NCBI RefSeq assembly: GCF_026626685.1
Contig: NZ_JAPNJX010000001.1
Location: 204,752 to 268,751, forward strand
Reading direction: 5' to 3'
Source of the DNA: Nannocystis sp. SCPEA4
Lineage (GTDB): Bacteria; Myxococcota_A; Polyangia; Nannocystales; Nannocystaceae
Length of the DNA: 64,000 nt
Numbering within the stretch: the stretch's first letter is position 1; each line of letters starts with the position of its first letter. The translations under genes were made by a program, and so were the position numbers. Below, one piece after another: positions 46,152 through 55,658 of the stretch. The notes beneath the pieces are model-generated. The model searched no databases and was not told where the DNA came from. It saw only the letters and a program-made list of their open reading frames with translations.

Positions 46152-47399
46152 TCACGCCCGCCCCGCGTGCGGCACCGCGGCGACCAGCGCATCGACGGCG
46201 CGACGCACCCGCGCCGTGCTCTCGTAGCAGGGGGTGCCCAGCCGCAGCAGCGACGTGCGCTTGCCAGCTCTTCGCTCGTGCACGCAGCGCACGTGGATCC
46301 CCGCGGGTTGCAGCGACGCGCAGACCGCCTCGACGTCGACCGCGGGCAGCGTCACGCTCACCGTCGCCAGCAACCCCTCCGCCGTCGGCGGCGTCTCGCG
46401 CTCCTCGCCCGTCACCGGATCGAAGAACTGATGCGCCACGCCGGCCGCCAGCAGTCGCTCGTGGAGCTCGCGCGCCAGCCAGGCCGCCAGCGTGCGACTC
46501 CGCTTCAGCGCGACCTGTCCGAGCGCCGCGTGCAGATCGAGCGCGGCAGCCAGGCCCGCGTAGACCGAGAAGTCGTGCGCCCCTCGCCGCTCGAGCCCGA
46601 CGCAGCCGCCCTCCTCGCTGGCTTCGCCCGCGGTCAGCAGCGGCAGCTCCGAGCGCGCGCGCGTCGAGGCCCACGCCAGGCCCACGCCCGGCGGCCCGAA
46701 CAACCACTTGTGCCCGCTGGCGACCACGAAGTCGGCCCCCGTCAGCGCCGGCGGCACCAGCCCCAGCGCCTGCGCCGCGTCGACGATCACGAACACCTCC
46801 GGCGCCGCCGCGCGGACCGCCGCCGCGATCTCGCGCACGGGAATCACCTGTCCGATCGTATAGGTCACCTGCGACAGCAGCAGGATCGCCGGCCGCTGTG
46901 CCGCCGCGATCACCCCCGCCGCCGCCGGATCGCGCAACGCCGTGTCGGGCAAGATCGCCGCGCGGAACCCCGGCTCGAACGCCGCCGTCGCGCCCGGATG
47001 CTCGTGCCCGCTGGTGAGGACCAGCGGCGCCTCGCTCCCGCCCAGCCGCTCGCGCAGGGCCGACGCGATCGTCCGCAGCGCCTCGCTCGTCCCGGCCGTC
47101 AGCGCCGGCGGGTCGCCCCCCCACAGCGCGGCCGCCAGCGCCCGGGCCCGCCGCCGCTCGGCCCGCCCGCGCTGCACCTGTCCTTCGGGATAGGCGAACA
47201 GCTCGTCGTCCCAGAACCCCTGCATCGCCGCACGCACCGCCTGCGCCGGGGTGGCGATCGATCCCGGGTCGAGGTTGATGCGCGCCCCGGGGAATTGGCG
47301 CACGCGCAACCTGTCCCAGAGGTCCTGGTCTTCGGGACGCTCGCGCAGCGCGCCGAGCACCGACTCGCCGGCGGGCCGGCGCCCGCTCGCCTCCGTCAT
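46152..47399 (-). CDS. class V aminotransferase-fold PLP-dependent enzyme
   Basis: 415 aa. VASGHKWLFGPPGVGL contains the PLP-lysine motif (SGHKW) of class V / cysteine desulfurase / epimerase-like enzymes. Confidence 0.8.
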   Translation of the reverse strand: MTEASGRRPAGESVLGALRERPEDQDLWDRLRVRQFPGARINLDPGSIATPAQAVRAAMQGFWDDELFAYPEGQVQRGRAERRRARALAAALWGGDPPALTAGTSEALRTIASALRERLGGSEAPLVLTSGHEHPGATAAFEPGFRAAILPDTALRDPAAAGVIAAAQRPAILLLSQVTYTIGQVIPVREIAAAVRAAAPEVFVIVDAAQALGLVPPALTGADFVVASGHKWLFGPPGVGLAWASTRARSELPLLTAGEASEEGGCVGLERRGAHDFSVYAGLAAALDLHAALGQVALKRSRTLAAWLARELHERLLAAGVAHQFFDPVTGEERETPPTAEGLLATVSVTLPAVDVEAVCASLQPAGIHVRCVHERRAGKRTSLLRLGTPCYESTARVRRAVDALVAAVPHAGRA

Positions 47400-47554
47400 C
47401 GGCTGCCCTCTGCCATCGGTCCACAGTAGACCGCCGCGCGGCCTCCCGGGGGATCGATCCGCCGCGCTGAACCGCGCGTCCGCATCCGCGCACGGTCCCC
47501 ACGCAACCGCCGCGCGCCAGCGCGCACGGCCGTGGTCACGACGATCGTATCTGT

Positions 47555-47610
47555 TTCACCATGCCTGTTCGGACATGCCCCAATCGACATGTCCATTCAA
47601 GCATGTCACA
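47555..47610. repeat. 14-bp-phased array, 4 units, intercistronic
   Basis: CATG at 47560, 47574, 47588 and 47602. Confidence 0.85.
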
Positions 47611-54479: not shown

Positions 54480-54485
54480 GGCGGT

Positions 54486-55658
54486 TCAGGGCACGACGAC
54501 GGCCGTGGCCCCGCGGATCCGCAGGCTGCGATCGGGATCGGTGAACAGCGGCCCGAGCTCGTCGTGGACCTCGAAGCGCCAGGCCGACGGCGCGTCGGCG
54601 GTCGGCTCGCTGATCTTGTAGACCGTGCCGCCGATGCCGACGGCGTAGATCGCCCCCTGGACGCGGGCCAGGCCCTCGATCTCGGAGCCGGCGGGGATGT
54701 CGTCGATGAACGGCCCGTACGCGCGCGGCTCGGGCATCTCGCCGGTGGCGGCGACCCGCAGCAGCTCGTGGCGGCCGGCCGGGAACGTCTCCGACATCTC
54801 GCCGCGGACCAGCGCGAGCACGTCACCGTCTGGCCCCGGGACCATGTCCCCGGAGACACCCACCTTCTCCTCGAACTGCGCGTGGACCGAGCAGATCGGA
54901 TCGCAGGCGTAGTAGAGCGGGTCGTTGCTGATGTCGCTCGGCAGCACGCAGTGCTTGGGCTCGGCCAGGAACGCGGGGTCGAGCTCGAACAGCGCCCCGC
55001 GGGCGTCGAGGCCGTTGCCGGGCTTGCCGGCCGAGGCGGCGAACAGCGTGTCGCCGACGAACTCGAGGCCGGTCATGCTCTGGCGCCAGTAGCAGGCGTC
55101 GGTCGCCGGGTCCTTCACGTCGCCGTACTTGAAGGCGTAGCGGACGCTCTCGATGCGGTTGTCGGCGCGGGTCCAGTCGGGCACGCCCAGGGTCATCAGG
55201 CCCCACTCGTCGTTGAGCGGGTCGTAGCTGAGGCCCCACAGCCCCTTCTCGGCGTGCCAGGCCAGGTCGCGCACGGTGAAGCGCAGCAGCGACTGATCGG
55301 ACATCGAGATCGGGCCCATCTGGTCGTCGAGCCACAGGTTGCCGAGCTTGCTCAGGCAGCCGCCGTCCTTGCACGGCTTCGACGGGTCGTAGAGGTAGAG
55401 CGCGTTGCCGACGTAGCGGCCCTCGGCGTCGAGCGGGAAGTTGGCGGTGAAGTTGGCATCGCCGTCGGTCGGCTTGGTGTTGACGAGCAGCATCAGCTCG
55501 CCGCGGAGCGGCTGGTCTTCGAGACAGCCCTCGCAGAGGTCGACCTCCGGCGGCAGCCCCTCGCCCTCGTACGTGTCCGGCATCATCGGCTCGTAGCCGA
55601 CGCACCCCCACGCGACCGTCGCCACGCCGGCGAGGGCAATATTGAAAATCGTTTTCAT
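54486..55658 (-). CDS. lipoprotein, unknown function (first gene of TonB-receptor string)
   Basis: MKTIFNIALAGVATVAWGC lipobox. The 390-aa product has several Cys pairs. No family recognised. Confidence 0.7.
   Translation of the reverse strand: MKTIFNIALAGVATVAWGCVGYEPMMPDTYEGEGLPPEVDLCEGCLEDQPLRGELMLLVNTKPTDGDANFTANFPLDAEGRYVGNALYLYDPSKPCKDGGCLSKLGNLWLDDQMGPISMSDQSLLRFTVRDLAWHAEKGLWGLSYDPLNDEWGLMTLGVPDWTRADNRIESVRYAFKYGDVKDPATDACYWRQSMTGLEFVGDTLFAASAGKPGNGLDARGALFELDPAFLAEPKHCVLPSDISNDPLYYACDPICSVHAQFEEKVGVSGDMVPGPDGDVLALVRGEMSETFPAGRHELLRVAATGEMPEPRAYGPFIDDIPAGSEIEGLARVQGAIYAVGIGGTVYKISEPTADAPSAWRFEVHDELGPLFTDPDRSLRIRGATAVVVP
55643..55657. promoter_or_regulatory. Fur-box-like 7-1-7 inverted repeat overlapping the start codon
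   Basis: TGAAAAT C GTTTTCA compares with the Fur consensus TGATAAT N ATTATCA. It is an AT-rich island in a GC-rich genome, at the head of a TonB-receptor operon. Confidence 0.3.

Follow-up and report, generated by a model that had tools for sequence, protein, structure and literature searches.

A conserved gene unit of Nannocystis that joins a TonB-dependent receptor to a SpeE-like enzyme and a stand-alone ATP-grasp ligase next to Fur-box-like sites: a possible siderophore locus

The window analysed here is the whole stretch of 64,000 nucleotides (64 kb) taken from contig NZ_JAPNJX010000001.1 of Nannocystis sp. SCPEA4, and the subject of the analysis is a string of minus-strand genes at its positions 46152-55658, in which a gene for a TonB-dependent receptor stands near those for a spermidine synthase (SpeE)-like aminopropyltransferase and a stand-alone ATP-grasp ligase. 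The window has a G+C content of ~72%, and its genes show a third-position GC (GC3) of ~0.96. Genes were called by GC3; raw lists of open reading frames (ORFs) at such a G+C content consist mostly of spurious frames. Families were assigned by Pfam and NCBIfam searches of the gene products. This procedure yields eight co-directional genes, which encode, in the direction of transcription, an orphan lipoprotein, the receptor, a short PepSY_TM protein, the SpeE-like enzyme (hereafter SpeE), the ATP-grasp ligase, two Cys-rich secreted proteins (Cys2 and Cys1) and a class V pyridoxal phosphate (PLP)-dependent enzyme (Table 1). An initial annotation of this DNA had given the same eight genes in the same order, and its family labels agree with the Pfam, NCBIfam, PDB and structure matches. 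It had also taken all eight, including the Cys-rich and PLP genes, as one string, and this does not stand. Because Cys1, Cys2 and the PLP gene are confined to close relatives within Nannocystis, the conserved unit consists of five genes (lipoprotein, receptor, PepSY_TM, SpeE and ATP-grasp) and the divergently transcribed gene up422, not of eight; the remaining three are genus-specific neighbours.

Table 1. Features of the locus and its surroundings (positions are those of the window; aa, amino acids; bp, base pairs)
Feature	Position	Strand	Remarks
Orphan lipoprotein, 390 aa	54486-55658	-	First gene of the predicted operon; lipobox AWGC
TonB-dependent receptor, 817 aa	52026-54479	-	PF07715 + PF00593
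Short PepSY_TM protein, 160 aa	51503-51985	-	PF03929
SpeE-like polyamine aminopropyltransferase, 306 aa	50567-51487	-	PF01564, PF17284
Stand-alone ATP-grasp carboxylate-amine ligase, 340 aa, CphA G-domain-like	49519-50541	-	Last core gene
up422, orphan lipoprotein, divergently transcribed	55803-57071	+	GC3 0.96; conserved operon partner
Fur-box-like 7-1-7 palindrome, site 1, TGAAAACGATTTTCA	55643-55657		Overlaps the lipoprotein start codon and first five codons
Fur-box-like 7-1-7 palindrome, site 2, TGAAAAGGAAAATCA	55743-55757		In the divergent intergenic region, 46-60 bp before the up422 start
Putative sigma-70-type promoter of the operon	55667-55697	-	-35 TTGACC at 55692-55697, then GGTG(N)TA, -10-like
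14-bp array over the SpeE stop codon and the SpeE/ATP-grasp junction	50545-50594		Hairpin z -2.7
14-bp array filling the receptor/PepSY_TM intergenic space	51975-52024		Hairpin z -1.9, modest
14-bp array inside the receptor 5' coding region	54325-54395	-	Just past the signal-peptide-like segment
14-bp arrays by the Cys genes	47558-47607, 48489-48524		After Cys1 and Cys2
14-bp arrays elsewhere in the window (examples)	8088-8163, 14203-14278, 26219-26280, 38868-38943, 60440-60487
Cys2, Cys-rich lipoprotein with Thr/Ser-rich linker	48533-49408	-	Genus-specific neighbour, outside the core
Cys1, Cys-rich secreted protein with Antistasin-like domain	47661-48296	-	PF02822, 39.7 bits; outside the conserved core
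Class V PLP-dependent enzyme, 415 aa	46152-47399	-	PF00266, 68.5 bits; outside the conserved core

The unit was followed through 39 loci, found by a scan with the ATP-grasp alignment (one genome per species) and all belonging to the Nannocystaceae, whose neighbouring genes were compared by tblastn with the window proteins and by ORF clustering. One of them, locus L001 on contig NZ_JAQNDN010000024 of Nannocystis radixulma, carries an ATP-grasp gene that is 99% identical to that of the window. The linkage of SpeE and ATP-grasp in other genomes, which the initial annotation had proposed to check, is evident throughout the family: SpeE lies upstream of ATP-grasp in 39/39 loci with enough flank, the two genes often overlapping or being less than 25 bp apart, and in 26 loci the lipoprotein-receptor-PepSY_TM module lies directly upstream of the pair, with protein identities down to ~40-50%. 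The outer flanks vary between loci while the core order holds. The sole interruption of the pair occurs in Plesiocystis, where two genes are inserted; in Plesiocystis pacifica (L035:3502-5829) these encode a TerB-like protein and a Mem_trans (AEC-family) transporter, the latter a possible exporter for the product of the pair.

Three layouts can be distinguished. In type A, found in Nannocystis and in many metagenome-assembled genomes, up422 is divergent from the lipoprotein gene, which is followed by receptor, PepSY_TM, SpeE and ATP-grasp. In type B a homospermidine-synthase-like gene, which runs on the opposite strand, comes after the same uptake genes, and then SpeE, ATP-grasp and a convergent gene for an IucA/IucC+FhuF synthetase. 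Type C, of Enhygromyxa, Plesiocystis and relatives, has the homospermidine-synthase-like gene divergent from SpeE-ATP-grasp, and no receptor. In two Enhygromyxa-type loci (L019:1384-3900 and L022:478-1896) a large flavin amine oxidase (PF01593) lies beside the homospermidine-synthase-like gene, which suggests a polyamine-remodelling module.

The receptor contains a Plug domain (PF07715, 45.8 bits) and a 22-strand barrel (PF00593, 93.6 bits). It is closest to FecA and siderophore receptors, scoring 286.9 bits against the FecA model NF041676 (cutoff 1100) and 119 bits against TIGR01783 (cutoff 223.5), so that it falls within no curated substrate subfamily. The PepSY_TM protein matches only the C-terminal half of its Pfam profile (PF03929, 58.8 bits, positions 174-294 of 295) and is predicted to have two transmembrane (TM) segments, one N-terminal and one C-terminal, with a periplasmic domain between them. 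At 160 aa it does not show the full PepSY_TM architecture with four haem-binding helices of FoxB-like reductases. Its gene is kept between receptor and SpeE in the related loci.

The 390-aa lipoprotein, encoded directly upstream of the receptor in at least 22 loci, is presumed to be a surface or periplasmic partner of the receptor. Besides its lipobox it has at least eight invariant cysteines. Searched as a single sequence at permissive thresholds it gives no Pfam, NCBIfam or PDB match, and its AlphaFold model, built from the single sequence, is unusable (predicted local distance difference test, pLDDT, 38.8). The up422 protein has a lipobox (LAAC), a Thr/Gly-rich linker and a helical domain with conserved Cys residues, and in 18 loci its ortholog is transcribed away from the lipoprotein gene. 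It likewise gives no Pfam, NCBIfam or PDB match, its family profile included; profile searches of both families against the PDB return nothing at E<=5. An assignment of up422 as an imelysin-like or saccharopine-dehydrogenase-like protein was rejected, no relationship being found on comparison. Both orphan lipoproteins contain many invariant cysteines and are kept beside the receptor operon across the Nannocystaceae.

The combination of lipoprotein, receptor and PepSY_TM protein is the layout of ferric-siderophore uptake modules, as in XusABC of Bacteroides and modules with FoxB-type PepSY_TM reductases. The window shares this three-part layout. Unlike in XusABC, the lipoprotein is an orphan without DUF4374 or other match, and unlike in the FoxB type the PepSY_TM protein is a two-helix protein that covers half the Pfam profile; a role as di-haem reductase is not established.

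SpeE contains the catalytic domain PF01564 (129.7 bits) and the N-terminal tetramerisation domain PF17284 (36.2 bits). Against the spermidine synthase equivalog PRK00811/NF002010 it scores 233.9 bits, just under the cutoff of 260. Its closest relatives of solved structure are PDB entry 7xif and the Thermus thermophilus triamine/agmatine aminopropyltransferase (1uir/3anx), with scores of 178-184 bits. The motifs YQD, DE..YHE, GxGEG, VDxD and DxTDP are kept across 29 orthologs, and the segments GTGEGA, DEALYHE and LDVTDP align with those of Thermus SpeE that serve binding of decarboxylated S-adenosylmethionine (SAM) and catalysis. The roles of the acidic GxG(D/E)G residue, of YHE and of D-x-(S/T)-D-P are presumably those seen in SpeE structures. 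Despite the shared catalytic motifs, the Nannocystis locus differs from the Thermus system in that it has no evident context of thermophile-type long or branched polyamines and in that SpeE scores below the equivalog cutoff.

The ATP-grasp ligase resembles the G domain of cyanophycin synthetase (CphA) in both sequence and structure. It aligns with positions 171-468 of the NCBIfam model PRK14016 (150 bits), the part that corresponds to the G domain, and in all scores 150 and 127 bits against cyanophycin synthetase models with cutoffs of 850-877. The best phmmer match in the PDB is entry 7wac (E=1.6e-21). The structure predicted by AlphaFold with 15 orthologs as input (pLDDT 92.9) has as its best Foldseek match the CphA1 G domain (7wae, E=1e-23, TM-score 0.73); the next closest is the ATP-grasp half of bifunctional glutathione synthetase. 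The protein consists of the G-like region only, without the N and M domains of the N-G-M architecture (~870-900 aa) of CphA1 and CphA2. An identity as cyanophycin synthetase is ruled out by the stand-alone length, the lack of the N and M domains and a sequence identity of 23%. Residues K107, E146, D273, R275, E296 and N298 are invariant in the ortholog alignment; by analogy, K107, D273, R275, E296 and N298 would supply the Lys and Asp/Glu-x-Asn ligands of ATP and Mg2+. From their conserved motifs, both SpeE and the ATP-grasp ligase are predicted to be catalytically competent. Cyanophycin synthetase forms an acyl phosphate on a carboxylate and then an amide (PMC10273328), and the ATP-grasp ligase is expected, by its likeness to CphA, to share this chemistry.

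The space between up422 and the lipoprotein gene measures 145 bp and is strikingly AT-rich for this genome. Alignment of the two Fur-box-like sites listed in Table 1 with the equivalent regions of other genera gives a common 15-bp motif, TGAWAA-N3-WWWTCA, a form of the Fur 7-1-7 box. This motif is derived from the sites themselves; the canonical consensus TGATAATNATTATCA was searched as well, with up to 3 mismatches, and gives one match in the 64 kb, at site 1, where 0.02 are expected and only 2/100 shuffles contain any. The derived motif occurs in two places only in the window, at the two sites, and in the 39 related loci (674 kb) 41 of its 46 matches belong to the same pair of sites ~100 bp apart. 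The motif pair occurs in loci that have the lipoprotein gene; site 1 is kept in nearly all loci with that gene, and an AT-rich motif at the position equivalent to site 2 is kept across genera. The lipoprotein gene, which site 1 overlaps, starts with the codons ATG AAA ACG ATT TTC AAT ATT, of which 4/7 end in A or T. In a gene with GC3 ~0.96 such codons argue for selection at the DNA level. Both sites resemble Fur operators, and there are good grounds in the sequence to predict that both divergent units are repressed by iron through a Fur-type regulator. The initial annotation had connected the locus with metal uptake; the conserved Fur-box-like sites and the siderophore contexts of related ATP-grasp genes, described below, strengthen that link. 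Between the two sites lies a promoter-like element, CTTGACC...GGTG(C/A)TA, which is kept in orthologous loci and in the window is the putative promoter of the operon. A scan of 46-56 kb with the strict sigma-70 consensus returns 0 promoters, and Rfam finds no RNA family in 44-58.5 kb.

The core genes are separated by 6, 40, 15 and 25 bp. They probably form one operon that ends after the ATP-grasp gene, with the Cys and PLP genes separate. The intrinsic-terminator scan of 46-56 kb gives 1 terminator-like site, inside the receptor gene, and the hairpin after the ATP-grasp gene is not significant (z -1.07). According to the initial annotation, 14-bp arrays separate almost every gene and make the operon structure uncertain. 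The arrays are real: GACATG-N8-GACATG has 116 matches in the window, where 3.35 are expected. Their spread between the genes had been overstated, as they lie at 4/7 gene junctions (PLP/Cys1, Cys1/Cys2, ATP-grasp/SpeE and PepSY_TM/receptor), and none is found at the PepSY_TM/SpeE and ATP-grasp/Cys2 junctions. The array hairpins after Cys1 and Cys2 are very stable (z -4.9 and -5.3), and the two within the core are weak. A fifth array inside the receptor ORF is kept in L003-L005; with an array at this place, either the arrays are not strictly intergenic or an N-terminal extension of the receptor is tolerated as coding sequence. Array positions are conserved in the genus Nannocystis and absent in other Nannocystaceae genera, and therefore the arrays are not needed for the conserved unit. 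The 14-bp GACATG units often form the palindrome GACATGTC and are mostly intergenic throughout the window; they could be repetitive extragenic palindromic (REP)-like elements or protein-binding arrays.

Genes that point to siderophore chemistry are found near relatives of the pair; in locus L025 imelysin and HTTM genes lie upstream. In the sister genera the IucA/IucC+FhuF synthetase gene is convergent to ATP-grasp in 8 loci and lies within 8 kb of it in a ninth. The synthetase belongs to a Nannocystaceae-specific clade, and its best PDB match, albeit a weak one (62.7 bits), is AsbB, the spermidine-using petrobactin synthetase. Adjacent to SpeE in ~16 loci is the homospermidine-synthase-like gene, the product of which has a saccharopine-dehydrogenase fold and matches in the PDB only bacterial homospermidine synthases. 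A profile search of 1.84 billion representatives shows the ATP-grasp clade to be narrow, with six full-length representatives at 553-318 bits and then a gap to ~215 bits; like the IucA/IucC clade, which is narrow too, it is confined to the Nannocystaceae, and in both cases scores drop sharply towards sequences from outside.

Outside the clade the nearest stand-alone ATP-grasp relatives occur in Paenibacillus and Cohnella, with 30% identity over the full length and a shared N-terminal (S/N)KTRS motif. In these genera, and in one metagenome, the ATP-grasp gene is the first of an operon with the order ATP-grasp, class III aminotransferase, MFS, IucA/IucC, IucA/IucC, HpcH aldolase and PLP decarboxylase, and the Cohnella operon is flanked by ferric-siderophore ABC transport and FhuF genes. 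Two further ATP-grasp relatives lie near IucA/IucC or FecCD/FhuF genes. In a metagenome locus (L046:6398-8975, Logan SRR28011572) the gene for a short PepSY_TM protein of 169 aa precedes those for a GCS2 carboxylate-amine ligase and for an ATP-grasp 35% identical to that of the window. The order short PepSY_TM, enzyme, ATP-grasp thus recurs there with another middle enzyme, a hint that the ligase, and not the receptor alone, may be the partner of the short PepSY_TM protein.

The explanation that we favour, with about an even chance of being right, is that the locus is an operon for iron starvation, in which uptake of a ferric chelate is coupled to the making of a carboxylate siderophore with a polyamine part. 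The divergent promoter region with its two Fur-family operator-like sites would drive up422 in one direction and the five-gene operon in the other. Lipoprotein, receptor and PepSY_TM protein would form the outer-membrane and periplasmic uptake set for the ferric chelate. SpeE would build or extend a polyamine backbone with decarboxylated SAM; the ATP-grasp ligase would turn a carboxylate into its acyl phosphate, to which an amine would then be joined as an amide. Their combined action would supply part of a carboxylate siderophore that contains a polyamine and is of the type of rhizoferrin, petrobactin or vibrioferrin. Probably also involved is the IucA/IucC synthetase of this lineage, whose gene adjoins the pair in sister genera and lies elsewhere in the genome in Nannocystis.

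Known pathways offer partial parallels. In the clusters for petrobactin (asbABCDEF of Bacillus anthracis) and rhizoferrin (FslA/LbtA) citrate is amidated with spermidine or putrescine by IucA/IucC-type enzymes, and the Francisella fsl operon embeds a diamine-forming decarboxylase. These clusters differ from the Nannocystis locus in taking spermidine from primary metabolism or a decarboxylase, and the AsbB match of the Nannocystaceae synthetase is weak. We know of no petrobactin or rhizoferrin cluster that encodes SpeE or a CphA-like ATP-grasp. The vibrioferrin system of Vibrio parahaemolyticus (pvsABCDE/pvuA) combines, in iron-regulated operons, an ATP-grasp enzyme of a carboxylate siderophore pathway, PvsA, with IucA/IucC-type synthetases and a TonB-dependent receptor (PMC5577590, PMC4431377), and the Paenibacillaceae ATP-grasp relatives belong to operons of such a type. 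Vibrioferrin synthesis involves neither an aminopropyltransferase nor a polyamine, whereas the window has no linked IucA/IucC or exporter; PvsA is likened to the window enzyme by description only. For ATP-grasp polyamine conjugates there is a precedent in the phevamine hsv operon of Pseudomonas syringae, whose ATP-grasp ligases couple amino acids to a modified spermidine (PMC6187163). Phevamine is a virulence factor that is not iron-linked, and its operon has an amidinotransferase instead of SpeE and no receptor; the ATP-grasp ligases are of a different clade, judged by description only.

Several observations weigh against the siderophore operon as outlined above. In the window, tblastn with three Nannocystaceae IucA/IucC proteins gives no match, the homospermidine-synthase-like gene is not found by the same method, and Pfam searches of 20 further ORFs reveal no speD, decarboxylase, exporter or other siderophore gene. 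The unlinked Nannocystis IucA/IucC ortholog lies 0.24 Mb off in N. punicea and 9.5 Mb in N. exedens, in a context that does not look like a siderophore locus (TauE, Prs-like, NadE-like) and with no Fur-like site within 10 kb on either side. At least six Enhygromyxa/Plesiocystis-type loci with adequate flank have the pair without a receptor and without a Fur-like site; there it is accompanied by the homospermidine-synthase-like gene and the flavin amine oxidase, which reads as polyamine metabolism. Because of the opposite-strand insertion in type B loci, SpeE and ATP-grasp need a promoter of their own there, not the Fur-controlled one, and in other genera the intergenic stretch that separates the homospermidine-synthase-like gene from SpeE contains no Fur-like site. 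In addition, the linkage evidence comes from one bacterial family only, in which shared ancestry inflates the counts.

The main alternative, rather unlikely in our judgement, is that the pair belongs to polyamine metabolism proper, with an ordinary or a conjugated polyamine as product (for instance one that carries an aminoacyl or glutamyl group, as glutathionylspermidine and phevamine illustrate) for stress protection, storage or signalling, and that the receptor module is a separate iron-uptake system which shares the operon in some genera. The type C loci, the SpeE score near that of the housekeeping equivalog (233.9 vs 260 bits) and the known polyamine-acylating ATP-grasp ligases of phevamine synthesis (PMC6187163) are all in accord with such a role. 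Against it stand the tight same-strand packing behind a Fur-box promoter, which persists across genera at 40-60% identity, the IucA/IucC gene adjacent in 9 loci and the position of the closest outside ATP-grasp relatives inside siderophore operons. The same nine loci bear on the proposal of the initial annotation that the compound is made without IucA/IucC enzymes. An IucA/IucC gene, absent from the window, is present beside the pair in these loci and, as an unlinked ortholog, in cultured Nannocystis, which makes the proposal doubtful. We regard it as unlikely that in Nannocystis proper SpeE and the CphA-like ATP-grasp ligase alone make a new class of polyamine-amide metallophore, independent of nonribosomal peptide synthetases (NRPS) and of IucA/IucC; if they do, the product may be secreted and recaptured by the co-transcribed lipoprotein/receptor/PepSY_TM set under Fur control.

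Inherited synteny without functional meaning, with SpeE a housekeeping spermidine synthase and the ATP-grasp an unrelated ligase, would account for the finding that all 39/39 loci are from the Nannocystaceae and that the receptor linkage is lost in some genera. It is improbable in view of the variable flanks outside a core of constant order, of the overlaps or very short gaps that suggest co-translation, and of the independent lineages that put related ATP-grasps beside siderophore genes, in one case behind a short PepSY_TM gene. Very unlikely is a metallophore of the opine or nicotianamine type for Zn, Ni, Co or Cu, imported by the receptor and made by SpeE-like aminoalkyl transfer, a saccharopine/homospermidine-synthase-like dehydrogenase and the ATP-grasp ligase, like the staphylopine and pseudopaline systems (CntL-CntM-CntO). 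Here the ATP-grasp relatives accompany IucA/IucC genes, not opine dehydrogenases, the dehydrogenase-like gene is absent from the window, and SpeE keeps the acidic GxGEG residue that, as we take it, selects decarboxylated SAM. The operator sites have TGA...TCA ends, which by the Bacillus 7-1-7 consensus we assume to be typical of Fur rather than of Zur or PerR. The saccharopine-dehydrogenase-fold gene beside SpeE in ~16 loci fits an opine pathway, as does the combination of a receptor with an aminoalkyl transferase, the logic of which presumably resembles that of cnt operons.

In the literature searched (on the SpeE/ATP-grasp pair, Nannocystis siderophore genetics and aminopropyltransferases in siderophore clusters) the present arrangement is not described. 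Siderophore pathways are found in genomes almost entirely by NRPS or IucA/IucC signatures; the window locus has neither, so that a search of this type would miss it. If a chelator is made with the help of the pair, the repertoire of siderophore enzymes would gain an aminopropyltransferase and a ligase that resembles cyanophycin synthetase. The stand-alone ATP-grasps of Nannocystaceae and Paenibacillaceae, labelled "hypothetical" or "cyanophycin synthetase" in databases, would gain a first functional handle, two orphan lipoprotein families would become parts of an iron-uptake system, and Nannocystis, a genus with poorly known iron acquisition, would offer a small, defined natural-product target. 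Should the IucA/IucC-independent route be the true one, siderophores would be known to arise by three enzymatic routes, of which this one would be the first to have a dedicated, iron-regulated SpeE. Even if the pair has an ordinary role in polyamine metabolism, it would be unusual for spermidine synthesis to be under iron-linked control.

The genus-specific neighbours of the core were characterized as well. Cys1 and Cys2 are tandem paralogs of Cys-rich secreted proteins restricted to the genus Nannocystis. The Antistasin-type domain of Cys1 is protease-inhibitor-like; Cys2, present only in L001-L005 and L020, has a lipobox and a Thr/Ser-rich linker encoded by 27-bp repeats. The PLP enzyme shows only weak, sub-threshold NCBIfam matches (EgtE, cysteine-desulfurase-like and PvdN), and its gene is absent from L004 and from all loci outside Nannocystis.

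Elsewhere in the window, the region 31100-35600 reaches a G+C content of 0.78 and contains tandem repeats of 54, 57 and 81 bp (at 32439-32647 and 33250-33446); no ORF in it passes the codon-position filter. On the minus strand, positions 40313-44750 encode a 963-aa fusion of phosphopantetheine-binding, AMP-binding and acyltransferase domains (Aas-like), adjoined by an OmpA-family protein with thrombospondin type 3 repeats, and this pair is kept downstream in the Nannocystis loci. Downstream of up422, positions 57099-60440 of the plus strand hold a 138-aa orphan ORF and genes for a 4Fe-4S ferredoxin-domain protein and two LPG_synthase_TM membrane proteins. An LPG_synthase_TM gene also adjoins a distant ATP-grasp relative in locus L047, possibly by coincidence.

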